Notes: generated by a model from the sequence alone, not told the origin. A stretch of 56,074 bases of DNA, filler included, from Circinaria calcarea (GCA_051942165.1; 2 parts of 2 records of this genome joined end to end with filler, not necessarily neighbours in it), one strand, 5' to 3'; counted from the whole stretch's first letter, positions 20,616-52,252 are shown. Translations and numbers: made by a program.

Positions 20616-22178
20616 TCACTCTTCCCCAAACTTCTTCGTCTTCTTCAAGATTCTTCCCCTCCCACCCCTGCTCCTCACCGGCCCCTCCGCCTTCCCTTTC
20701 TTCACTTTCTGTTCCATGGCACCCGTTTTCTGCCTTTTCGTTCTAGGCTCCGCAGATCCTGTTTCTGTATCGGCGGACGTGTCCTTCACCGCACCATCCC
20801 CGACATCTTTAGGTATAACGAGGCTAGAGCTAGCCTCGATGATAAATTGCTCTATTTGATTCTCAGACGTGGTTTTGGCTTGGACAGCTGCCTTCATCTT
20901 ACGTGAAGCTGCGGTGGGGGATCCCTTTGGAATCGTCTCGTGTCTGGCACCCGCGTCGGGAACTTTGGGTGGAGGTGGCATCGCAGCTCGGTCTGCCTCG
21001 AGCCTTGCTTCCCGAGCGGCGGCGGAGTCTTCGACGTGGCCAGAGGTGGAAGCGAGACAAGCTTGTCTCGGAGTATTCAAGATCAGGACTAGTCGGCCAT
21101 CAACGACGGCCTGGGAGCCGGTGGCAAGGTGTTCAGCGAGCGTGTTTGACGTTGGCTGACTGACTCGCCCTTTGCCCTCTACCTCTTCTTCGGCCTCGAC
21201 TTCGTCTTCACTTTCCGTCTCATCCCCATCCAACATCTGTGCCACTTTGTGCCTTTTCAAGGCCTTGTCCCTCACATCCAGCAATAAGCTAGCGGCGTCC
21301 TGCAGGTGCCTTCTTTCCTCGAAGCTTTTCGGGAACTGTCGCTGGCGGAGCTCGAGTGCTAGAACGCCCTCAGCGCGTTCGCAGCGGATCTCAAATGGGA
21401 CGCCAAATCCATATGCGTCTATAGAGGCGGCGCACAAGTCTTGCCAGCCTCCTTCTGTCCCAGGATCGCTCTGGGAGGATGTCTCGTCGACGGAGAATAC
21501 CTCGTCCTGCCTGTCAATATCTTCACCGTCAGAGTCCTCCACGGACATAATCTCTCCTCCCTCCTCGCTCTCCTCGTTGTCGCCAGAGCCGCAATACAAC
21601 GCTAGTCCATCAAGCCCATCCAGCAATGGCCTATTCGCCTGTGCTCTCCTTGCCGCTTCCTCCTTTAAACCTTTGAGCCGCCTCTGATGCTGCTCTTCCT
21701 CTCTGTCTTTTCGCATCATCGCCATCCACTCTGGACTCGGCGTTCTTAACAATTTGCTTTTTCCTTTGTCATGATAAGCCTTCAAGGCCACGGTCCGCGC
21801 GAAGTGAGATTCCTTGCTTGACGGGTCTAGCTTCCACAAGCGCTCGATTCCAGGCTCAACCTCTCTTTCTGCGACCTTCGACCGTAATACACGATAAGTG
21901 GAAGACATAAAGTCAGATTCGGTGTCTTGTACTTCGGACGGCATATCCCAAAAGCTCACAGGTGTTGGGGGTGAATCTACCGGCACCTCGACTACGTCTC
22001 CGCTGCCCTTGGTTGACCCAGAACCGCTAGAGCTCGTCAACAATCTTCTCCTCGGGTCGATGAGGCTCCCATTGCGCAGGAGAATGAGGCTATGGAGGAG
22101 TTCGAGGTCTTCAGGGCTACAGGCGGAGAGACAGTGGAGAGAGGCTCGAGAGGAGTAGGTAGGGATTTGGTGAGACAT
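20616..22178 (-). CDS. Hypothetical acidic/disordered 520-aa protein with basic C-terminal tail
   Basis: Uninterrupted 1563-bp ATG-initiated ORF with E/D-rich tracts and a K/R-rich tail (RSRGGRGRILKKTKKF). No domain recognised. Confidence 0.65.
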   Translation of the reverse strand: MSHQIPTYSSRASLHCLSACSPEDLELLHSLILLRNGSLIDPRRRLLTSSSGSGSTKGSGDVVEVPVDSPPTPVSFWDMPSEVQDTESDFMSSTYRVLRSKVAEREVEPGIERLWKLDPSSKESHFARTVALKAYHDKGKSKLLRTPSPEWMAMMRKDREEEQHQRRLKGLKEEAARRAQANRPLLDGLDGLALYCGSGDNEESEEGGEIMSVEDSDGEDIDRQDEVFSVDETSSQSDPGTEGGWQDLCAASIDAYGFGVPFEIRCERAEGVLALELRQRQFPKSFEERRHLQDAASLLLDVRDKALKRHKVAQMLDGDETESEDEVEAEEEVEGKGRVSQPTSNTLAEHLATGSQAVVDGRLVLILNTPRQACLASTSGHVEDSAAAREARLEADRAAMPPPPKVPDAGARHETIPKGSPTAASRKMKAAVQAKTTSENQIEQFIIEASSSLVIPKDVGDGAVKDTSADTETGSAEPRTKRQKTGAMEQKVKKGKAEGPVRSRGGRGRILKKTKKFGEE

Positions 22179-22298
22179 GTCAAGAAAATCGGGGGCAAGG
22201 AGGTGGACATTGAAAGGAGGGTAGGTGATCAGGGGAAAATCTCATAGATCCTGATTGATGCTTAATAAAAATGTATCCAAACACTTTTCCCGTTGCTT

Positions 22299-22334
22299 AC
22301 TCTGGACGAAACAAGCACTCTGGACGAAACAAGC
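22299..22334. repeat. 18-bp direct tandem duplication (ACTCTGGACGAAACAAGC x2)
   Basis: Two perfect adjacent copies at 22299-22316 and 22317-22334, at the shift from GC-rich to AT-rich sequence. Confidence 0.9.
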
Positions 22335-22720
22335 AAGTATCGTTCATATAGTCCAAGGATGAATGGACCTCCAAAATACCAGTGAACAGAAAACGTATAT
22401 AGTCAATAGGAAAGAATTTCCATGACGGACTCAATTCAGGGCTTGAAGAAATATAGTTATTGCTTGTTATATACACCTCACTCTCAACATTCCCTGCATC
22501 CCAATATATATCCCCTACATAGGCCAGTTTGAATCGAAATGATATTTTACCCGCCACTAACAGTCGTTATCTAAAAACCGAATTTAAATATATCGAATAG
22601 AACCCCATTTCAGCTTAGAATATATAATATTTAAAAAATTGTGTGCGTGAGTAGAAAAAATAAAATATATTAAGCTATAACAATCAATTATGGCTTAGTG
22701 GAGTAATTGGTGAATTTATT

Positions 22721-23839
22721 TTATGTAGAATTTATAAGACTTTTAACAGATGCCCATGCTTGTACAATTCCTGTAATGGATTGGATTAATCCAAAAACGA
22801 TTGTCAGCGCCAATATCAACACTGCTACCCAGAAGGTGTACCATTGGACCTTCTTTCGATCGTCGTTCCACCACTGTTGAATTTTCTTTGGCTCGGAATC
22901 ATCGAAAACTTGCTTTAATATCACGAGACGGTCCCGCCAGTATTTAAATTCCCCAATCTGACGGCCAGCAGTATTCAGGTGTCCACAAGAGCATGCCTTG
23001 AAGTCAAGGCATCCCCGCTCCTGTTGCTTTGCACGTCGTCCTTGCTTCGCACGGAACCATTTCCTCACTGTCTGGTTGTTAGGAGGAAGAAGAAGCGAGA
23101 GTGTGCGGAGAGTCTCGTCCACGAATCCAGGAGGAAAGGCATGGCTTATAATGTTCTGGTGAGCACGGTGTCAATACTGATAAAAGTACCAGGTAACCTA
23201 CTAAGCCGAGTCTCGATGGAGTTCTAGAAATGTAGCATGATGGAAAATCATGACTCGGGTATCGTCGTCTTTCATAAGGAGATGATCGGCTAAATTGTTT
23301 GTCCAAGATACTCGTATGCCTGCGACCCTCTCCAGGTTACAGGCGTTGAATATCTTCTCGAGTTTCACCGTGGACTCAATTTCGTGCCGGCCTGAGAACA
23401 CTCCACCTATCAGATCATCCAAAGTCTCCTCTCGCCACATGATTTGGGTACTTCCCGGCGTCAAACTATGACCGATATCACCTATATACATCATAAGCCA
23501 TAGTCTAGCAGCTAAGGCAATGAAGGCGTCCACGTCTTTGCCATCGCCAGCGGGGTTGATGCTTGGACACAGTTTTTGCTTGATAGATTCGAGGTTCTCT
23601 CTGCCATCTTTCAAACACCTAATGACCTCCAAAATATCTTGATGGCTTTTGACTGTGATGCGGGACTGACTACATTGGTCTTCATAATACCTAAAATAAG
23701 ATTGGACTTTATCTGCTAAATTGGCGAAATGCTTCTCGTCGTGATCTGTGTTCCAGACTGCATTGAAGATTGATCTGCGAGCGCTGGGTTGCAGGGGAGT
23801 GCGCGAGACCGGGTCAAGTAAGCTCGCCATCATTAACAT
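22721..23839 (-). CDS. Uncharacterised fungal protein with C-terminal transmembrane segment, 2 exons
   Basis: Exons 23839-23202 and 23144-22721, with a GTAGGT..AAG intron at 23201-23145, give a continuous frame. Motifs YFRYY, LAARLWLM, WTNNLADHL, IFHHATFL, DETLRTLSLLLP, YWRDRLVILKQVFD and QWYTFWVAVLILALTIVFGLIQS. Confidence 0.8.
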
Positions 23840-24336
23840 CGGTGGCCAACAGATTTGGTGCGGATTTTTTCTAGTTGATTATGAAGTCTGCTTTAAAAGC
23901 CTCAAGCACCGTAGGCATATCAGCCTTGCCCAGCAACTGCGGATTCGCGTCAGGTGGACCCCGGTCTTAGAGGGGATCGCTAAGCTTCCCGGGGAAAAAA
24001 ATCGCCCGGTATTTTTGTAATACCGGCCGACACCCTCCCCCCCCCGAAAATTAAGTGACGACCCATAAAAGCCGGGGGTTAGGTAGCGCACTCGTCCACC
24101 TCTTTTAGCTGAATAAAGAAATATCTAGATAGAATAACTCATTCAGCATCGTCAATTATCCCAAACTCTTGGAAAATCTAAGATGTATGTATATATTATT
24201 CTCAACTTCATGCATCGCTACTAAAGACACGACTGGCGGTGCTTATGCTGCATTCGTGGGCCACAGGACTACACCGAAGGAACCATCAAAAGTAGTACAT
24301 CGGCTGCGTCTCCAAGTTGCTCAGAATCAGGTGACT

Positions 24337-27300
24337 ATGTTCAAGAGGAAGAAGAACAGCTGGCCAAATCCAGAACTATCAATTGGACGGCCTTGCCCTA
24401 CTTACTCTACCGGCGGTTGTTGCTGGGAAGCTGTCGGTCCAGCTCGTGATGCCTTTAACGAAGTCGCCGAGAAGGTAAAGGACCTCTTTCAAAGCCAAAG
24501 TGACTATCTAGACGAAGGCGAGGAAGACTCATTCTCATTTTCATATGGTATATGGATGGTAGGATGGGATAAGTCCCATGCCGTCCCCACAATCATACTC
24601 GGATGCCAGAGTACGGCTGTCCGGACAAAGGCGAAGAACATATTAAAGGAGAGTGGTCTTCTAAAGTCATTTCCGGGGATTGCCTTGAAAAAAACAAATA
24701 GGGCGCCGGATCCTCTAGCCGCTGGTGATGAACTTGACGAATCCAATAACCGTGATGATGTGGACGCTATCTACACCCTTAAAGGAGCAAAGGAGCAGTG
24801 TGGGATACGCATTTTCCTCGGCGGTGCCGATAACCCGCCTACTCAATCTGCGCGTGAAGCCACAATGGGTGGAATTGTACTTATTGATGGCGTTGCTTAT
24901 GGAATATCTGTTTCGCATGTATTCGCTCCGACATTTCGAGCTCCACAAAGTCCGGCAAAGGATGACCTTATAGCGTTTGATGAAGATAGCGATACTGATG
25001 CTGGAAACTTTACCGAGCTGACAAGTAAAGGTGAATGGCATCAATCCATACGGGCATTATAGGGATAAAGGAACTTATTCAAAAGCTGACTCAAAAATGA
25101 TTATGAACAGGGAGCATCTCTCCGCCATCTAAGCTTAGCGTGGCCTCGGAATCTTCATCTTCAGATAACGAGGATATCACTCGCGCGAGCTCGAAGTTCT
25201 CTGCTTTTAACTTGAGTTCGAGCCAAAGCTCTTCTAATCGACCTACCCTGCCCGCTACAGGACAGTCTCTCGTGAGGATTGGAAAACTCTCCGAGAGAAG
25301 TAAAGACAGCGGCCCTGACTGGGCTCTTCTACAGTTGGACTCCAACTCATGGCGTTATTCCAATAAGGTTACCGTGCCTCCACGAAATAGAGGAGGCGAA
25401 CGTGTGATAGATGAGTATATTTACTGTGAGACGTGGGCTCCTCAAGTTATGGACAGTGATATCTTGGTGGCTACAGGCAGAGGAGGTACCATTCAGGGCT
25501 ATCTATCGGCAACGCCAACGTTCATCAAACTACCAGGTTGCCCAAATTTTCTAAAGATATGGCCTGTGGGCTTAAAAAACTCGCTCGGTAGCGCTTAATT
25601 ACCTAGTGCTCAAGGCTTCAAACTAACAACAAATAGGTGCCGGCGATTGCGGAGCCTGGGTTGTGAATTCCAAAAGTGGAGATCTCTACGGTCACATTGT
25701 TGCTGGTAATTCTGGATCCCTTCTGCATTATATTATTGCAGCCGAAGATATATTTGACGATATCAAATTATATAAAGAGTCAATAGTCAGCTTGCCACAT
25801 AAACGTCCTCATTATGATCAAAAAGTTGGATCGGTGCAGGGAAAGCTCCGAGTTTGGATTGAAGGAGTTAGGGATCTGGTACCATGCCATGAACCCTATT
25901 TAATCGTAATTGTCGAAGGCAATGAATACTTAGCGAGAGGACGACCCGCCGAACCTAACGATTTAGAGCCGCCATTCTATTTAGGATATCCAGAAGCAAT
26001 GCCGCAAACGTCTGTTGAGATAGAATGGCAACGCGAGATCTTATTGTGAGTTTTTAACCATGCTTTTAAAATATATTAATTAACTTAAAATAGTGATATC
26101 ACGGCCGAGCCTGTCGACATTGATATATCGATTCATGATAAATATGGTGGTCCGAGATCCATCGGAAATATCACAATTTACCGGGAGACTAAGGATCTGG
26201 TGGGTGTTATAGAGTCGTATCAACTCGAAAATCGAGGTTCGGAAGAGATTCCTGTAACGGGAAGCATATCACTGTCCTTCGAGTTCCAGAATACAACACG
26301 CACTAGATATGGGTACGATGACTTCCAATTTCTCAAGGTGATAGGCATTTGTATTTATCCCTCCCATATACCTAAATTCAGGAACTGACCCCACGTGAGG
26401 CTGTACTGGTCAAACGTACCAGGCCCGAAATCGGAACACGCAGAGAAATTATGCTATTGAGGTGATTCCTCGCAATATTATCGCGAGCGAATCTTCACCG
26501 CAAACTGGCCGACTAGAAAGCGAGCTACAGCAACTCAAACTTCTATCCTCGCCATATGTAAACACTTGGAAGTTTTACTTCCATACCCCGAGCGACCATT
26601 ACCTGGTCACAAACTTCAAGTCTGGAGGGGAGCTTTTGTGGCATCTGCAGGAGGGAAGATTTCAGGAGGACAGGTCAAGATTTTATGCGGCCGAGCTTCT
26701 CTGTGCACTGAAAAGTTACCATGATCATGATATCATCTTTAAGGATCTTAGACCACAGAAAATATTATTGGACGCTAAAGGACATATTGCTCTAAGCCCT
26801 TATAGTTTGCGAACTCATGGCATAGCAAAGGCTACGGATGGCTCGAAAGATGATATATGTGCACACTCGACTATCGAATATTTGGCCCCAGAGGCTATTC
26901 TAGAACCAGATGGGTACAGCAAAGCTAGTGACTTCTGGGCGCTTGGGGTTATTATCTTCGAGATAGCCTGCGGCTGGAGTCCATTCTTCGCGGAAAACAT
27001 TCAACAAATGTACAAGAATATTGCCTTCGGGAAAATTCGATTTCCCCGCGATGGATTGAGTTCTGAGGGTCGCAGCTTTGTCAAAGCGTTATTGAATCGG
27101 AACCTCAATCGACGCCTTGGAGCGAAACATGGAGTGCAAGACCTAATGGCGCATCCTTGGTTTGCAACAATCGATTGGGAGAGATTTGAGAAGAAGCTCA
27201 TAGAGCCTCCATTTCGACCAAAGTTGAAAAGCGACAACGTTTCAAACAATGATCCTAAGGTTCCTGAAGAACCATGGAACGCTCCTAATCTCAATCAGCC

Positions 27301-27523
27301 TGCGGTGATGCGCGGCTATCCTTCATCTGCGCAATACTCGATAGATTCTGGCATCGGCTTATCATCCCGGTTCAGCTCTATAAGAAGCACACCGTTCTCA
27401 TACGATTCGGCTCTGGGAATGCCTTCAACGCTGGAATCCCAGTTCGGTGGTTTAGACGCTATGTACGAAGAGTGGGATGAGGAGGAGAAAGATGAGTGGG
27501 ATGAAACTCTATTCGGTGATTGA
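24337..27523 (+). CDS. Fusion of trypsin-fold (Cys-nucleophile) protease, C2 domain and Sch9-derived AGC pseudokinase, ~986 aa, 5 exons
   Basis: Exons 24337-25030, 25111-25587, 25637-26045, 26094-26350 and 26400-27523 sum to 2961 nt (987 codons) with no internal stop. Protease motifs GISVSHVF, DWALL and GDCGAWVV..LYGHIVAG. Sch9-like segments FDI..IDISIHD..GSISLSFEF, SGGELLWHLQ-EGRFQEDRSRFYAAEL and CGWSPFFAENIQQMYKNIAFGKIRFPRDGLSSEGRSFVKALLNRN. The last intron has weak sites (GTATTT..GAG). Confidence 0.72.
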
Positions 27524-28034: not shown

Positions 28035-28134
28035 NNNNNNNNNNNNNNNNNNNNNNNNNNNNNNNNNNNNNNNNNNNNTTAATTAATTAANNNNNNNNNN
28101 NNNNNNNNNNNNNNNNNNNNNNNNNNNNNNNNNN
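28035..28134. other. Artificial 100-bp contig linker / assembly gap
   Basis: 44 N + TTAATTAATTAA (stops in all frames, both strands) + 44 N. Confidence 0.95.
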
Positions 28135-29747
28135 CCATCGAAAGCAACACATTCAGACCCCGTCCTTGGTTCGGCACCTACTGGGTTCTCTTCTTGTAGC
28201 ATACCAAGGAGGTGTGCTCCGCAGAAACGAGTGCAACGAAAAGTCCTGTGAACGGAGAAGCATATCCAAAATCAGGATTACCTATTTTCCCCCCGGTTGG
28301 TTGATATCTAAAGCGTTCGTGATCGCGGTTGATGGGCCGAAGACATCTCTTTCCGCTCTACGTGTACGCCCGGCCAATAGTTATGTATTCCACTGTGCCC
28401 AACGTGGAGACATTCAAACCTTGAGATTTTTATCGAGTACTAATCGTTGTTCTCCGCTGGATGTTGACTGTGATGGACGGTCTCTTTTGCACGTAAGGAA
28501 TTTGCCGAGCAATCCATGTAATCGAGCTAAAGTTCAAACGATAGTACGCTACTGAAAACGGTCATATAGATGCTTGTAAAGGCTTACTGGACTTAGGAGC
28601 CGACCCCGACCTACAGGACAAATACTTGTTGTAAGTTGAAGCATTTCTTGGTACCATGTACCAGCTTACACATCTTAGTTCTGCAAAAGATCTAGCTTCA
28701 AATCAAGTGTTTGAATATGATATACAACCGTGGGAATCAGTGTTTGATATCACGTCATGGGCCGAGGAGCAGGAATTCTCACGTCTCCATCATATTCTAC
28801 TGGATATACATCCCGGTGATTTGAGGCAAGAGCTTGAATACTCTTCAATAGCAATTAATGTACCAGACATTAAAGGTCAGACACCGTTACTATGGGCAGC
28901 CATGAGAGGAGACAATTACGCAGTCACGCTATTACTGGAGTTTGGTGCGGATCCCAATATCGCAAATGCTCTTGGCATCCTACCCATCTTTTATTGCTAT
29001 AACCTTTCTGTCGAGTGTCTTAAGGAACTTCTAGTACATGGTTCAATGATTGAATATCCCAGCAAACTAGATGTTAGTTCAGCTTTACATTACGCGACGG
29101 GATATTCAGATGATATTCAGATCCTTGAGATTCTCTTAGATGCTGGTGCAGACCCTATGGCAAGAAACTTAGTGCACTGGACTCCATGTCATTCTGCAGT
29201 CTGGAATAATAACTTGGGAGCATTGAAATTTCTTATTGACCGTGGTGCAGATCTCGACACAAGCAATGTTGAGGTCGCGAGCCTACTCCTTCATGCTGTT
29301 CTGTATAATTCGCACGCATGTCTTGTCTATCTCTTGGAAGCCGGTAGCGACGTCAAGATCAAGACTACACCTGGTGCAACAATACTACATGTAGCTGCCG
29401 AGGAAGCAGATGAGAGCACATTGCAAATACTTGCCTCATTCGAGTTATCTGGGGTGGACCCTGACGCTACATTCGAGGACTTTACTGCGGAGGAGTGGTT
29501 ATACGGGTGCAGGCCCTGGAACGGCAAGGACCCTCCTTCTGCGTCTTTGGAAAATGCCTTTCTCGATCTCCTTTTCAAGGTACGAGAGGATATAAAGAGA
29601 GCGACTGGGAACGAGGGTGACGAGGGTGACGAGGGTGACGAAAATAACGAAGGCAACGAAGGTGATGAGAATAATAAGAGTAACGAGGGTGGCAACGGCG
29701 CGGATCAAGATAAAATTGGAGTAAGGGTTCCGGGCTCATGGATCTAA
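28135..29747 (+). CDS. Ankyrin-repeat protein, 5'-truncated by the gap
   Basis: Exons (<28135)-28492, 28545-28630 and 28679-29747 are in frame. Multiple ANK motifs: GRSLLHYA, GQTPLLWAAMRGD..LLLEFGADPN, SALHYA..LLDAGADP, WTPCHSAV and GATILHVAA. The tail is an acidic (EGD)n repeat. Confidence 0.85.
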
Positions 29748-39200: not shown

Positions 39201-40960
39201 TTATACATTAATTAATAAAGTAACGCTCGGATCATGATAGTTGATTTTTGCGTAAAAGTACCAATTCGCCACTGTTAATAGAAACATACTAAATAGGACT
39301 ACGCACGTGTAATCTAATATTCCACTAATGATTAAACGGGTTCAGTATATGGGGTGTAGTTATACCACTTACTCATGTTCCCAGCAGTGACTGGTTTTAC
39401 CGTAGGAAAGCTATAAAAGACGAGTACAAGGCATGTCCAACCAATCACAATGCTATTGACAAGCCAGCCAGCCTTCCCCAGGTTGTAGCGTCCTTTTCTT
39501 GGGAGGAACTGCGGGGCTCGACGCTGCCACATAAGGAGGGCTGCCGGGAAGGCAAATGAGACCTGCTCCACGAGCAATCCAGAGCCGACAATGGTATTGA
39601 AAGCTAACAGTAGAGAATCAGCGTCAAGTTGTAAATATCTCAAATAAGCATCGAGCACGAGTGGCTTACCCGTAGTAGATCCAAGGTAGATACACCCGAT
39701 GATAAGAATCCAAAGGGCATTGAATAACAGAGCCCAGACGGGTACATCGCGTTTGGGATCTATCTTCTTGATGTACTTTGACCATATCAAAGCATCATCT
39801 CTCGCAAATGCCCAGGTGATCCTTGAAGCTGCCAGTACACTCCCAAGGAGAGTCAGAAAGGCCACGGACGTCATGAGAACCATGAACACGGTAGTGGCTA
39901 CTCTGGAATCTGTGGCCTGGGCAAAGATCTCGTACAATGGCACCCTATTCTCAGTCAGTACTAGAAGCAAAGAGTAACGGAGTGAATAGACTTACCCTGT
40001 TCGAGTCGACAAGACTGCGCGGATATCGCTTATACAGTACAGCATGGCCACAGCAAAGAAAAAGGCTGTGATAACTCCAATGACCAGGCTGAATATGGTT
40101 GCCAAGGGTACAGTCCGTGCAGCATCCAGGCAGTCTTCGGCCAGATGAATAGCTCCGTCAAGACCGGCAAATCCATAATTGGGGTTGACCAAACCAGTCA
40201 GGAATACAATGCCTTTGTTACTCCATCCGGTTTCATTGATAAATCCTCCCCATATATTACCGCTTGGCTGCTTGGGATTGGCGACGGCTAAGCAGGTGAT
40301 TGTGATTGTGATGAAAGAGACAATCGACACGATGACTATAGCAAGCTTAGTCAATGGACCATGGGTCGAGCAGCATAAGGTTTCTCGCAATACTGACAGG
40401 CAACATCATGTGTCCAGGGCGTTTGTTGAAGAATGAAAATGTCATACAATAAGACGACAATATTCAGTACTTGGTAGAGGAGAAACACATGCCACTGCCG
40501 GATAACATAAGAGTCGTTATAATATGATACGATACCGAGGGTAAAGTGAGCTACCACGACAGTAACGCTGGCGCAGATTGTGACTCTGCCAATGGCGTTG
40601 ACCGAGCCACATGCATAACTCTAAGCCAGGGATTAGAAGTAACAAGAATGCGATCTGGGAGACGTACTAGCCCCCTGCTTATCCTTTTTGGCGCAAGAAC
40701 CGAGGTCCAATGATATTGACCGCCAGCAGTAGGGTATCGTGCTGATAGTTCTGCCAGCGAAAGGGCCGTAGCTCCGTAAATTACGGAGATCAGAATAAGA
40801 CCATAGACAATGGTTACGGGACCCCCATTTGCAAAGCCCAGGACCAGTGTTGAACCCAGACCAAACCAGGTATTCAGGATATTGAATGATGCAGATAAAA
40901 TGCCGAAAGTGCCGATGGTTTTGGGAGGCTTCTCGACCTCACCCCGAGTAATGATACCTA
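39201..40960 (-). CDS. Amino-acid/choline/GABA permease (APC family, HNM1/UGA4-like); 5' end unresolved
   Basis: Motifs ANGGPVTIVYG..SLAELSARYPTAGGQYHW, NETGWS..FLTGLVNPNYGFAGLDGAIHLAED, SRITWAFARD and MNYTCVV. The last exon is 39313-39201. No in-frame ATG was found immediately upstream of ~40960. Confidence 0.82.
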
Positions 40961-45497: not shown

Positions 45498-47549
45498 ATG
45501 GAATCTCAACAGAGGGAATCGGAGTTGAGAGAGCGGGTTTTGTCGAACACCTCAGGCGAAGATGGTCACCTTGAAGAGCAGACTCTTGATATTGATGCTA
45601 GGACCATGCAAATTATGGGCAAGAGGCAGCAGCTCAAGGTAAGAGTGACGCTCCTGTTCGTAGTCAGCGGAAGTCTAAAAAGCTGATTATTTGCATAGCG
45701 AAATTTTGGATCCATATCAATCACTAGCTTTGCGGCAACCGTGCTAGTATCATGGCAAGCATTTGCAAGGTTGCTGCTCCTTTCTATGTTTCCCTTTCCC
45801 ATGCTTCCCCTCACAGCCCCTCTGATGCAATTTCCTCTATATGGCTTCTCTATACATACTTCCCTATATACAATAAGCTGATGGTCAAGGTTGTTAGCAC
45901 CTTTCAAGGTGGTCTGGTCAATGGTGGTCCATCTAGTCTAGTCTATGGCTTCATCTTGTCCTTTTTCGGTTCACTCGCAACAGCTACCTCATTGGCAGAA
46001 ATGGCATCTATGTAACTCTTCATTACCTACAGAAATATTTCGAAGGAATCTGACATGCCCTGGATCTCAGGTCTCCAACGTCTGGTGGACAATATCATTG
46101 GGTAGCTGAGCTTGCTCCAAAGCGTTTTGCAATAAAACTCAGTTGGGTGGCGGGTAAAGTATCTTGGTTTCCATCCCCCATCGCTTACTTACACCAGTAG
46201 GCTGGGTCTCCGCCTTTACGCGAATAGCTGCCTCAGCAAGTGTCGCCTTTGTGGCTGGAACAATGATCCAAGGCCTGATTATTTTGAATTACGAATCTTA
46301 CGTCTACGAGCGCTGGCATGGCACATTCCTATACTGGGCGGTAATCCTTGTGTCAGTCCTAGTCAATATTCTGGGTATTCGATTTCTCCCATACATCGAG
46401 ACTCTCGCTCTTATCCTCCATGTTCTATACTTCTTCATGCTTCTGATCCCGTTGGTTCATCTTGCGCCACAAAGCTCTTCGATATTTGTCTTCAAGTCAT
46501 TTGAGAACTCAGGAGGCTGGAGTAACAATGGTGTTTCATGGTGCATCGGGCTGATTACCTCAACCTACGCGCTGTCAGGTAAGCATTGATTAACCTTACT
46601 ATATGCTCATTATTGATGACGCTCAAGGTATCGACTCTGCATGTCACATGAGTGAGTCGATTAACTTAAGGGGATGCTCCTGACAGTCATTATACTGAAT
46701 GGTACTTCTTCATCGTAGGTGAAGAGGTCACAAACGCAGCTGTTGTTGTCCCTCGAAGCATGATATTAGGGATTATCCTAAGCGGCGTCTTAGCGTTCGC
46801 CTTTGCCATCGCCATACTTTTCAGCATTGGTGATATAACTGCTGCTTTGAGCACTCCTACCAACTTCCCTATCATTGAGATTTTCCAAAACGCTACGCAG
46901 TCCAAACGTGCTACCAACGCAATGGTTACAGCCTTAATATCTTCTCTGATGTTCTCGACCTTCGGTCTCTTAGCTTCAGCATCACGCTTAACTTGGGCGT
47001 TTGCCAGAGATAAAGGATTGCCTTTCCCGGCCTATTTTTCCCACGTAAGGGCCCTCTTGGTGCTTCAGAAAATGCCTAACGATGTTTCATTAGGTGGACA
47101 AATACTATCTAATACCAGTCCGTGCAATAGGGCTCATCACGGTTGTCATGTTCATTCTAGGCCTTATCAACATCGGTTCATCTACAGCTTTCAACGCCAT
47201 CATTTCTCTCACCTTGATAGGACAGTACACTTCCTATCTTCTTCCCACTGTGCTGCTAGCAATGCGGAGGTATGGTAAGAAGCATATTCCTTTCGGCCCG
47301 TTTACATTAGGTCGTTTTGGGCTTCCGATCAACATTTTCGCTATCATATTCTCTACCTTCACTATTATCTTCAGTGTGTTGCCCCCGTATCAACCTGTCG
47401 ATGCAGTGAATATGAATTATGCAAGTGTCGTTTTTGGGACAGTGATGTTTATTAGCATCGTTTCCTGGTTTATTTTTGGGGAAAGGATATACGCGGGGCC
47501 GGTTAGAGAAGTCCTTGAAAACAACAACACCAGACGAATAATAAAATAA
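45498..47549 (+). CDS. Amino-acid/choline/GABA permease (APC family), multi-exon
   Basis: Motifs MGKRQQLKRNFG, GLVNGGPSSLVYG..SLAEMASMSPTSGGQYHWV, WHGTFLYW, GIDSACHM, SASRLTWAFARDKGLPF and MNYASVVF, with a consistent GT-AG intron chain. Confidence 0.92.
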
Positions 47550-47793: not shown

Positions 47794-48899
47794 CTACCCA
47801 TAGACCTTCTCGTTCATTTTTTCCAAAAATCCCAATGCCGTGATCTCATCAAAGAGCGCTGGCTGCGTCTCGCTAACGAACTGTGGCATTGGCCCCACCG
47901 ACTTCTCACCATTAGCCCGATACAGGAAGATGGTCGAATACCGACTCGGTAGCCTGTATTCATTCCTGCCTTTCCACTGCTCTGCTGTCGAAACCTGATG
48001 TAGACCCGCACGCAGCAAGCCATTCGTCCACCGCTCCAGAGTATCCGACACATTGACGATCAGATCCGACTGCTCATCATTTTTGACGGGAAGAAAAGAT
48101 CCCGGTTGCGTACGGTCCTCGAACTCGAGCCCGCCTTCGCTGTCCTGAATGAGCAGGGTGAAGATCCCGAGATCGGTGTGCGGCCAGATACGTCGTGTGT
48201 TGGTAGTGCAGAGCTCGTGCGTTGAGATGGGTGGATAATGATTGAGGCGTAACTCGCTGGCGTCGGGGCTGGCCCGCGAGAGGAGCGAATCGGAGGGGAG
48301 GGCGAGACCAAGCTCGAGAGCTTCAAGCAGGTAAAGACCGGTTGTATGGAACGCGGTATAGAAGGATTCTACGTGATGGCGAAAATCCGGGAGGTGGGCG
48401 TTGGCGAGCCAGAGGTTCGGATACTGCGGGTCCGAAAGGGGTCCAATGTCAAGGGATTCCTGTAACGCACGGTTTAATGATGAGACAAAAGAGACTTCGA
48501 TGACTCTGAACTCACCCGTGCATCTTTGGCGTCGGACAAGTGCGTGTTGCCTGGAGAAAGTTTCCATGACTTTTCTTGGCTATAGCCGTTGTACCCTCTC
48601 ACCGGCGCCGACCCTCCCTTGTGGCTACAAGTCATCTTTACGTGCACTGGGAGATCAAAAAAGCGTTTCTCCTGTAGAGTTAAAACTTGTTAGCCTCCCA
48701 TTATGTTTGTCAAAGAGAGTCATAGCCTTTAGCGTACCCAAGCAAAGATCCCTTCTATAAGGTCGCTTGAGATACCGTGATTTTGCAGCTTCACGAATCC
48801 ATCTTTTTTGAAGCTTTCAATCAAATTTTCTGCAAATTGAAGACGTTCCGCGCCTGAGCCTGATGTAAAAAGAGAAGCATCAAGCGTTACGGGGAACAT
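47794..48899 (-). CDS. 2-oxoglutarate/Fe(II) dioxygenase (IPNS-like, HtyE/GloF-type amino-acid hydroxylase-like), 3 exons
   Basis: DIOX_N motif GFVKLQNHGI, then ELRLNHYP, iron ligands HTD (WPHTDLG) and H (GLHQV), and the 2OG-binding RYS. Exons splice in frame. Confidence 0.9.
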
Positions 48900-51147: not shown

Positions 51148-52252
51148 ATGGAGCTTCCTGTTCTAGATTTAACCTGCTTTACTTCCGGTTCCGAATTGCA
51201 ACGTGCTGAGTTTATCAAGCAATTGATTGATAGCTTCAAAAGACATGGCTTTGTGAAGTTGGTAAACCATGGGTTCTCGGACAATGCCATTCAGGAGCTC
51301 TTCTACTGGGTATGGTCGACAGTTGCGGAAACGGTCTCTCAGGGCTAAATGAGCGTTCAAAATTGCAGAGCAAGCGTTTCTTTGACATGCCAGTAGACAT
51401 GAAAACAGCCGTCGCGAATCCACCGGGTCCAAACCCACAGCGAGGGTGGACTGGCTTCGGCATCGAGGTGACCTCGAAGCTCTCCGGAAAAAAGGGAGAT
51501 AAAGCAGTATCCGATGGAAAGGTGACCAACCTATTAAACAGCTTAGATGTGGCACCGAAAAACTAACGCCGCTAATGTAGGAACATTGGGACCAGGGACC
51601 AGCAGATGATCCCGATTTCCCCAACCGGTGGCTTGAGAATGCCGACTTGCCTGGCTTTCGTTCCTTCATGGAACCTTGTTACGAGCTCTGCAACAGGATC
51701 TGTTTGGAAATCATGAGGGCTCTGGAAATTGGATTGCATCTTACGGCCGACTCACTCACAGAGCGCTGTACCCCAAGGGCAAGCGACTTGCGCTTGAATC
51801 ATTACCCTGCTGTTGGTGTTAAGGAAATGAAGCAGGGTCGCATAACTCGTATTTCACCTCACACAGATTTCGGAATCATTTCTCTACTCCTCCAAGATAA
51901 TGTCGGTGGACTCGAGATTGAAGATCGAGTACACCCGGCATCATTCATCCCAGTCTTACCACGATCTTCAGGTGAAATGATTATCAACATTAGTGACACA
52001 CTTCAGCGATGGACAAACGACAATCTGCAGGCTGGGGTACATCAAGTTACCATACCATACCATACAAAAACCGATCGGGTGGTCATGCTTCCAGAAAGGT
52101 TTTCGATGGCATACTTTTTCAAAGCAGCGCGTGAGGTACCGGTTGGTCCATTGCCAATGTTCGTGAATAGTCAGCAACCGACAAAGTACAGAAGTATGAC
52201 TGCCTTAGAGTTTCAGCAATGGAGGAATCAGATGATGTACGCACCGATCTGA
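51148..52252 (+). CDS. 2-oxoglutarate/Fe(II) dioxygenase, paralog of 47794-48899, 3 exons
   Basis: Exons 51148-51309, 51369-51521 and 51581-52252. Motifs GFVKLVNHGF, DLRLNHYP, SPHTDFG, GVHQV and RFS. Its two intron positions match the first dioxygenase. Confidence 0.92.

Follow-up and report, generated by a model that had tools for sequence, protein, structure and literature searches.

The window studied here is a stretch of 56,074 nucleotides, filler included, from Circinaria calcarea (GCA_051942165.1), a lichen-forming member of the Lecanoromycetes, in which two parts of two records of this genome are joined end to end; the host DNA is fungal, and positions are counted from the first letter of the whole stretch. 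Positions 22721-27523 hold two intact genes transcribed away from each other, gene A from a start codon at 23839 (minus strand) and gene B from one at 24337 (plus strand). They encode a predicted tail-anchored membrane protein and a multidomain protein with a predicted protease and a predicted pseudokinase, respectively, a pairing found conserved in six classes of filamentous ascomycetes. An earlier note on this DNA had described the two starts with a spacer of about 500 bp, and this description is confirmed, the spacer between the start codons being 497 nt long in the window locus itself (23840-24336) and presumably holding a shared promoter region. The spacer also contains a perfect 8-bp inverted repeat (CCGGTATT..AATACCGG, 24006-24026) with a 5-nt loop, which may well be due to chance.

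The two genes and their predicted products

Gene A encodes a product of 353 aa without internal stops and has a single intron. Exon 1 (23202-23839, minus strand) covers residues 1-212 and two bases of codon 213, and holds the N-terminal cytosolic part with the WTNNLADHL and FHH motifs, where invariant T, N, and H columns are shared with the homologues. The intron (23145-23201, minus strand) is 57 nt long, reads GTAGGT...TATAAG, and leaves the junction HRDSA-Y-HAFPPGF, in agreement with the full-length homologues P0005, P0008, P0013, and P0014, which read straight through this position. Exon 2 (22721-23144, minus strand) covers residues 213-353 and the stop, comprising the conserved C-terminal half of the cytosolic domain and the tail anchor. 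The family hidden Markov model (HMM) spans gene A from end to end, with 443 bits over HMM positions 4-349 of 353.

The earlier note had seen a protein of about 350 aa with a long hydrophobic end, and the hydropathy profile agrees with this: Kyte-Doolittle windows of 19 residues exceed 1.6 only where they start at positions 311-324 of 353, so that residues of about 311-342 make up the sole hydrophobic segment of gene A. The C-terminal transmembrane helix predicted from the hydropathy lies at about residues 315-341 (22760-22840, minus strand), just after the invariant QWYTFW. Because the last 35 or so residues are the only hydrophobic segment, gene A is a predicted tail-anchored protein, with one C-terminal hydrophobic helix and no other membrane segment.

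The public protein P0021 (796 aa), named for a metagenome-assembled genome of Circinaria calcarea, matches the translation of the window with 100% identity; as a gene model it is a chimera joining gene A to the neighbouring gene. It uses another donor site, which deletes the conserved VMIFHHATFL, skips the membrane helix, and continues into the next gene, an acidic 541-codon open reading frame (ORF) at 20616-22241 (minus strand), the chimera spanning 20616-23830 (minus strand). The reading given here corrects the public gene model at this locus.

The label of an orphan, under which gene A had first been described, is wrong. Exon 1 as the query finds 19 relatives, and the better conserved exon 2 finds 219 proteins at an E value of ≤0.001 among 835 candidates, belonging to six classes of Pezizomycotina (Leotiomycetes, Sordariomycetes, Dothideomycetes, Eurotiomycetes, Lecanoromycetes, and Geoglossomycetes). 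Nearly all of the relatives are 310 to 420 aa long and named "hypothetical protein", and one species can hold several of them; Podospora, Cladorrhinum, Colletotrichum, Cordyceps militaris, and Aspergillus karnatakaensis are among the named carriers. Among the 120 listed of the 219 matches there are no fused forms of gene A, the only long one being the chimera P0021. No Pfam model matches gene A, and 25 of the 30 nearest clusters in the ESM Atlas are unnamed Ascomycota clusters. The 79-member alignment of the family has 22 invariant columns, including the T, N, and H of WTNNLADHL, plus QWYTFW, while T, G, Q, G, and Q within the membrane helix are nearly invariant, the polar residues being placed at heptad spacing.

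The AlphaFold2 model of the homologue P0005, predicted with the family alignment, has a mean predicted local distance difference test (pLDDT) score of 94.8 and a predicted template modelling (pTM) score of 0.89. Helices make up most of the model, which also contains a small sheet and ends in a 41-residue helix (303-343). A Foldseek search of the whole model against the PDB gives no match at an E value of ≤0.001, the best E value being 0.55, and the search of BFVD gives none either (best E value, 0.14). The best match in the wide VIA-align search has a Z-score of 5.1 and covers the terminal helix only, and a PDB profile search with the gene A family yields no match at an E value of ≤10. No structural match to a gasdermin or HeLo/4HB fold surfaced in these whole-model searches. 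The cytosolic domain of gene A is predicted to be compact; it is highly conserved, and its model shows no recognisable fold.

Gene B encodes a product of 986 aa without internal stops on the plus strand, in five exons (24337-25030, 25111-25587, 25637-26045, 26094-26350, and 26400-27523) separated by four introns that are all GT..AG. Residues 2-454 form an N-terminal alpha/beta domain followed by a protease (24337-25827, plus strand; exons 1 and 2 and the start of exon 3, with introns at 25031-25110 and 25588-25636), to which the family HMM aligns with 474 bits. The predicted catalytic residues are His194 in GISVSH (codon 24916-24918), Asp301 in DWALLQ (25317-25319), and the nucleophile Cys395 in GDCGAW (25648-25650), all on the plus strand. 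Across the 61 rows of the family alignment, His is found in 61 and Asp in 60, with Glu in the remaining one; at the nucleophile position, 54 rows have Cys, 3 have Ser, 1 has Tyr, and 3 have a gap.

A protease profile built from exons 1 and 2 of gene B plus one relative matches 1155 representative clusters at an E value of ≤0.001 and 76 at 1e-30, yet searches with P0143, P0152, or the protease of locus L005 find no Pfam protease family at an E value of ≤10. We predicted the structure of the family member P0143 with AlphaFold2, the exons of gene B being rows of its alignment. The model has a pLDDT of 79.2 with confident cores and falls below 50 at residues 464-476, a predicted disordered stretch just after the protease. 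Its best VIA-align match is a Streptomyces protease (PDB ID 2sfa; Z-score, 16.6; root mean square deviation [rmsd], 3.1 Å; 181 aligned residues). The Streptomyces S1E proteases 2sfa and 2sga together give Z-scores of 16.5-16.6 at an rmsd of about 3 Å over 175-181 residues, the alpha-lytic protease (PDB ID 2alp) 16.5 at about 3 Å over 179 residues, and the rice protein NAL1 (PDB ID 8pmi_B) 16.4 at 6.0 Å over 275 residues, including the N-terminal alpha/beta domain. The Foldseek E values for the S1E, alpha-lytic, and NAL1 matches range from 4e-7 to 2e-6, with a probability of 1.00. The trypsin-fold protease named in the earlier note is borne out by these matches and by His194, Asp301, and Cys395: the protease of gene B is predicted to have a chymotrypsin fold with a His-Asp-Cys triad in the family columns, and the protease of the module is likely active.

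The bacterial S1E enzymes (Streptomyces griseus proteases A and B and the alpha-lytic protease) are the closest to the catalytic core, with 175-181 of their 181-198 residues aligned. They are Ser enzymes that are secreted and synthesised with a pro-region, whereas gene B encodes a predicted cytosolic Cys enzyme, which also carries extra domains and, between its His and Asp segments, a large insertion that is acidic and rich in Ser. NAL1, a plant protein, is the best structural match over the N-terminal alpha/beta domain together with the protease barrels, model residues 24-460 superposing on chain residues 84-452 as one unit at a sequence identity of about 10-15% (9-11% in Foldseek and 13-15% in VIA-align). 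The nucleophile of NAL1 is Ser, unlike Cys395 of gene B, and we know of neither a linked tail-anchored partner nor a variable C-terminal domain of NAL1. NAL1 has been described as a protease cage in which two trimers are stacked.

The region between protease and kinase, residues of about 455-612 (about 155 residues; 25828-26350, plus strand, with an intron at 26046-26093), had been called a C2 domain. This label finds no support in sequence searches: there is no C2 match at an E value of ≤10 in Pfam for exons 3 and 4 or for the family representative P0195, and phmmer finds no PDB sequence of any kind at this level for exon 4 and the end of exon 3. A BLASTP comparison of exon 4 with P0195 likewise gives nothing significant (E values, 0.1-0.33).

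The kinase domain begins in the last residues of exon 4 (FQFLKVIG). Intron 4 (26351-26399, plus strand; 49 nt, GTATTT...GTGAG) contains a CTGAC branch site, and its splicing leaves the glycine-loop region at what we take to be the usual length for an AGC kinase. The domain at 26400-27163 (plus strand) matches Pfam Pkinase with an E value of 1.5e-38, and among solved structures it comes closest to PKA (1e-53), PKC-eta, and Akt, with the alignment entering the AGC tail. The glycine loop reads GICCTG. Aligned to PKA, the domain carries Glu633 (26459-26461) in place of the ATP-anchoring Lys of VAIK and Pro-Tyr-Ser at residues 746-748 (26798-26806) in place of DFG; FKD (26738-26746) stands for HRD/YRD, so that the Asp of HRD is kept, and downstream of it the catalytic-loop Lys and Asn are replaced by Arg730 and Lys733. 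The AGC C-terminal extension, a Ser-rich part, and an acidic tail with the stop follow (27164-27523, plus strand), the PKA alignment reaching query residue 289. Since the kinase fold is retained and catalytic residues (the VAIK Lys, the Asn, and DFG) are lost, the C-terminal domain of gene B is predicted to be a catalytically dead AGC kinase, that is, a pseudokinase, in line with the dead-looking kinase copy that had been suspected. P0195 shows the same protease-kinase layout; its kinase, at 32% identity, is likewise degenerate and shares the Asn-to-Lys change.

Recurrence of the gene pair and its variable domains

Scanning metagenome contigs with the gene A alignment gave 288 relatives, of which the best 80 loci were kept with gene A set to the plus strand. 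To locate protease neighbours, we ran tblastn with 150 listed representatives of the protease family and considered matches within the first 520 residues of each representative only. Of the 80 loci, 52 show a protease-family gene directly upstream in the opposite orientation, 2 show one downstream on the strand of gene A, and 26 show none, mostly with a contig end close to gene A. Dereplication at 90% nucleotide identity reduced the 80 loci to 60 clusters. Sixteen of these have less than 700 nt of upstream flank and are uninformative, 2 further clusters show no protease within 700-1499 nt, and 42 are informative.

A recurrent adjacency of the WTNNLADHL/QWYTFW family to GD[C/S]G.WV..LYGH proteases had been set as a test beforehand, and the outcome is positive: the protease lies head-to-head upstream of gene A in 39 of the 42 informative clusters, which marks the two genes as a unit rather than chance neighbours. 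The two genes are separated by a median of 536 nt (range, 255-1270 nt). The flank on the other side of gene A served as an internal control, and 196,267 nt of dereplicated downstream flank, with 25 clusters contributing at least 2500 nt, contain a single protease match, in the cluster L017/L075.

Among 28 representative loci of at least 6 kb, gene A is found in 28 and the protease in 26, with the next most widespread ORF group in 4 and no third conserved gene. Since no other flanking ORF group is shared, the unit consists of two genes. Over the 29 of 39 pairs that align well to the gene pieces of the window, the divergence of the two genes is correlated (Mantel r, 0.78; 0 of 2000 permutations reach this value), with an r of 0.35 among 355 distant pairs. 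The median identity is 0.52 for the C-terminal part of gene A and 0.29 for the N-terminal part of the protease, gene A being the more conserved of the two. The pairing survives to a protease identity of 22-46% and across at least six deep gene A lineages. The two genes are a conserved two-gene proteolytic module of the Pezizomycotina, co-diverging and divergently transcribed.

Two explanations of the linkage that involve no proteolytic switch can be weighed here. The first holds that the two genes are unrelated neighbours whose adjacency is nothing more than inherited synteny. Some loci are plainly syntenic orthologues, L062, L063, L064, L067, and L079 aligning over many kilobases, but the persistence of the pairing at such low protease identities and in so many lineages, together with the lack of any other shared flanking gene and the downstream flanks as a negative control, leaves this explanation close to refuted. 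The second sees in the two genes a selfish element or an allorecognition system (toxin-antidote or het-locus type) whose linkage would be kept because mismatched partners are harmful. The tight linkage and the co-divergence fit such a pair, as do the many paralogous copies, which appear as distinct loci in the same metagenome samples and as several members under the same species name, and the position of the window pair next to lower-GC, poorly conserved genes. The strong conservation of gene A (median identity of 52% and 22 invariant columns) is, however, unlike that of typical allorecognition determinants, and Pfam scans of the gene products and family members found no HET, NACHT, or repeat domains, so we regard this origin as improbable.

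As a side observation on the spacers, 12 of 40 contain the 8-mer GCACAGCC on either strand, where block shuffles would give 0.5, and 18 of 40 contain CAGCCTC, where 3.0 would be expected, which might be a shared regulatory site. We did not use GCACAGCC as a shared promoter motif, as the loci are partly related and the spacer of the window lacks it.

The part of the protein that follows the protease differs between family members, as the earlier note had anticipated: PNGase-like, kinase, NDT80, CorA, patatin, BAG, F-box, CBM21, and DUF7896 domains are all found. For 55 long representatives (655-1208 aa) out of 150 listed, a Pfam scan finds Transglut_core and/or Rad4 (PNGase-like) in 17, DUF7896 in 3, CorA in 2, a kinase in 2, and NDT80/PhoG, patatin, zf-C2H2, Fungal_trans_2, and Sugar_tr in 1 each, with no C-terminal Pfam family in 26. 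At the gene A-linked loci, 86 of 121 ORF segments downstream of the protease module were scanned, some of which may belong to the next gene, and these add CBM_21, F-box, BAG, ULD_2 with DUF7896, and Zn_clus with Fungal_trans_2. One gene A-linked member of the protease family (L054:5386-8703, minus strand; 1106 aa) ends in CBM_21 (E value, 1.1e-35), a module of PP1 glycogen-targeting subunits.

The PNGase-like domain of L005 (L005:3583-4500, minus strand) aligns with mouse PNGase (E value, 6e-50) and yeast PNGase (5e-45) and carries Ala where both have the Cys of GRCGEW, which we take to be the catalytic residue of PNGase; L031 is also PNGase-like with this Cys replaced. A GRCGEW-type motif is found in 14 of the 17 PNGase-like members, and none of the 14 has the Cys, which is replaced by V in 9, by A in 2, and by S, L, or M in one member each, although the PNGase-like domains keep their fold. 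For at least two kinds of C-terminal domain, the PNGase-like and the kinase domains, the motifs thus indicate dead enzymes, and this points to a binding or recognition role for the C-terminal domain rather than catalysis.

Proposed mechanism and known systems

We tentatively favour a reading, short of being probable, in which the variable domain sets the condition or the target, the protease transduces, and the tail-anchored protein is the constant output and the most likely substrate at the membrane. The module would then act as a membrane-located switch based on regulated proteolysis. Its recognition part, either a bait or an adaptor, would be the variable, dead-enzyme domain, which would decide when the protease fires; the tail-anchored protein would be the constant output and most likely the dedicated substrate. 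Cleavage may free or rearrange its cytosolic domain relative to an oligomerising membrane helix, the output being either signalling or membrane damage. An output is favoured over a mere anchor because gene A is more conserved than the protease and because the polar residues of the membrane helix are nearly invariant at heptad spacing. A complex prediction for the cognate pair of L005 (protease residues 1-500 with the 364-aa partner), computed with no alignments, scored 0.00 and is evidence neither way.

Several observations weigh against this reading. The invariant polar residues of gene A (T, N, H, E, D, and R) would fit equally an enzyme that needs no cleavage. The pairing test was anchored on the gene A side only, and the loci are related by ancestry, so that 39 clusters do not amount to 39 independent events. 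In one informative cluster (L017/L075), the protease follows gene A in tandem on its strand instead of diverging from it, and two clusters, L038/L039 and L072, have no protease despite at least 1500 nt of upstream flank, L038/L039 holding only the C-terminal half of gene A as a truncated copy. The loci L025 and L027 carry one gene A allele with and without a protease neighbour, their contigs diverging 409 nt upstream of gene A. A further point is SltB, a protease of the same general kind which is reported to cleave itself and an unlinked transcription factor (PMC4557415, PMC4985261).

SltB belongs to the Slt cation-stress pathway of Aspergillus nidulans and is limited to the Pezizomycotina. 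It is described as a pseudokinase without VAIK, HRD, and DFG joined to a chymotrypsin-like serine protease, whose intramolecular autoproteolysis parts the two domains and which also processes the transcription factor SltA (PMC4557415, PMC4985261). The likeness to gene B lies in the combination of a pseudokinase and a chymotrypsin-like protease in one polypeptide of Pezizomycotina only, the proteases being compared by description only. SltB has its pseudokinase at the N-terminus, its protease at the C-terminus, and a Ser nucleophile, whereas gene B has the reversed order and a Cys; the described SltB substrate is a transcription factor, whereas gene B has a linked tail-anchored partner. The authors of the SltB work found no source kinase for its pseudokinase, whereas the pseudokinase of gene B is clearly AGC-like.

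By analogy with SltB, the protease of the module might be a signalling protease whose main substrate is itself, cut between the protease and the C-terminal domain, with the tail-anchored protein docking or restraining it at the membrane and an unlinked regulator as a possible further substrate. We consider this a possible but less likely account. Its output, to which we give much the same guarded weight, would be non-lethal: the C-terminal domain, once released, would convey a signal in stress or development. The SltB precedent of autoproteolysis and SltA processing in a pseudokinase-protease of Pezizomycotina speaks for it (PMC4557415, PMC4985261). Several C-terminal domains are those of transcription factors (NDT80, zf-C2H2, Fungal_trans_2, and possibly Zn_clus), which fits a release from a membrane tether, and the disordered stretch after the protease in the P0143 model (residues 464-476, pLDDT <50) counts in its favour as well. 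Many other C-terminal domains (CorA, patatin, CBM21, and BAG) are not obvious cargo for release, however, and a mere anchor needs neither a nearly invariant polar membrane helix nor a cytosolic domain that is more conserved than the protease. The reversed domain order and the Ser nucleophile of SltB also count against the analogy.

The module further resembles HET-Q2/HET-Q1 and the fungal protease-gasdermin clusters, in which a multidomain protease gene likewise lies beside the gene of a membrane-acting protein, as it does head-to-head in 39 of the 42 clusters here. More than 80% of fungal gasdermin genes are reported to be clustered with protease genes (PMC12881547). The proteases of the gasdermin clusters are S8 subtilisins or CHAT caspase-like proteases with WD40, ANK, TPR, or NLR parts, whereas the present module, known here from sequence and models, has a predicted chymotrypsin-fold Cys protease, non-repeat host-like C-terminal domains, and a predicted tail-anchored helical partner. 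Clustered genes of proteases and membrane proteins are a recognised theme in the control of fungal and bacterial cell death, the described fungal cases using subtilisin or caspase-like proteases with gasdermins. In the present pair both components are different and uncharacterised, and neither family has a Pfam model; the pairing supplies a genomic context for hundreds of "hypothetical proteins". We found no description of the gene pair in the literature searched, whose coverage of subscription journals is thin, and an earlier description may exist. The words "trypsin" and "tail-anchored" do not occur in a 2025 review of fungal cell death, and "trypsin" does not occur in a 2022 survey of fungal NLR effector domains.

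The model first put forward for this locus is a special case of the switch that we favour. It proposed that a decoy pseudokinase derived from Sch9, with a C2 domain, senses perturbation of TOR/Sch9 signalling and activates the protease, which would cleave the partner into a cell-death executioner by analogy with HET-Q2/HET-Q1. The conserved pairing with a membrane protein agrees with it, as does the predicted loss of activity of an AGC-type kinase, and the C-terminal domains resemble host regulators and appear catalytically dead where checked, as would be expected of decoys. The membrane helix has a conserved G/Q face with heptad spacing, which would be compatible with an oligomeric pore. On the other side, C2 is not detected in the Pfam or PDB sequence searches, and the best solved relatives of the kinase are PKA, PKC, and Akt, with no Sch9 origin shown; an ESM Atlas search with the kinase returns generic kinase clusters only and is uninformative on this origin. 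The model of the partner has no PDB match in Foldseek at an E value of ≤0.001. Fungal host PNGase is itself regarded as inactive, and the dead state may simply be inherited from the host gene, which weighs against a decoy. We judge this specific model unlikely, and the allorecognition pair and the chance adjacency to be less likely still.

A broader form of the switch reading would be a Pezizomycotina-wide surveillance system, in which a cytosolic Cys-chymotrypsin protease with integrated decoys cleaves a dedicated tail-anchored protein of a new fold. Through its conserved, polar-faced membrane helix, the cleaved protein would form an oligomer that either damages the membrane or signals. This is a speculative proposal to which we assign a rather low probability, somewhat below that of an SltB-like protease. 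No firmer is its account of the decoys, which would be dead copies of host hubs (AGC kinase, PNGase, NDT80, BAG, F-box, PP1-targeting CBM21, CorA, and patatin), the trigger being an attack on the decoy or a perturbation of its pathway. The logic is similar to that of plant integrated-decoy receptors and the pseudokinase decoys ZED1 and RKS1, namely, a constant signalling part with a variable, dead host-like domain, and the likeness is conceptual only; in contrast to the plant receptors, the module has no nucleotide-binding domain, and its constant part is a protease. If true, the module would be a protease-with-decoy counterpart of the NLR-ID receptors whose partner represents an executioner of a new class, and the integrated-decoy idea may extend to a type of receptor without a nucleotide-binding domain.

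Setting of the pair in the window

To the left of the gene pair lie conserved genes, namely, LMBR1, a BAG/ubiquitin gene, and an adaptin gene, and to the right lie lower-GC genes, comprising an ankyrin gene, a gene with a fungal-rhodopsin domain, permease fragments, and two 2OG-Fe(II) oxygenases. Searches with PADLOC and NCBIfam gave no matches. Downstream of gene B, the ankyrin-repeat ORF (28635-29747, plus strand) lies outside the unit that is conserved in other loci, and a short N run at about 28090-28136 (15 X in two reading frames) is found just upstream of it. Two amino-acid-permease fragments and two 2OG-Fe(II) oxygenase ORFs (39332-39991, minus strand; 46670-47278, plus strand; 47794-48579, minus strand; and 51581-52252, plus strand) are located in the lower-GC right half of the window and look duplicated or fragmented.

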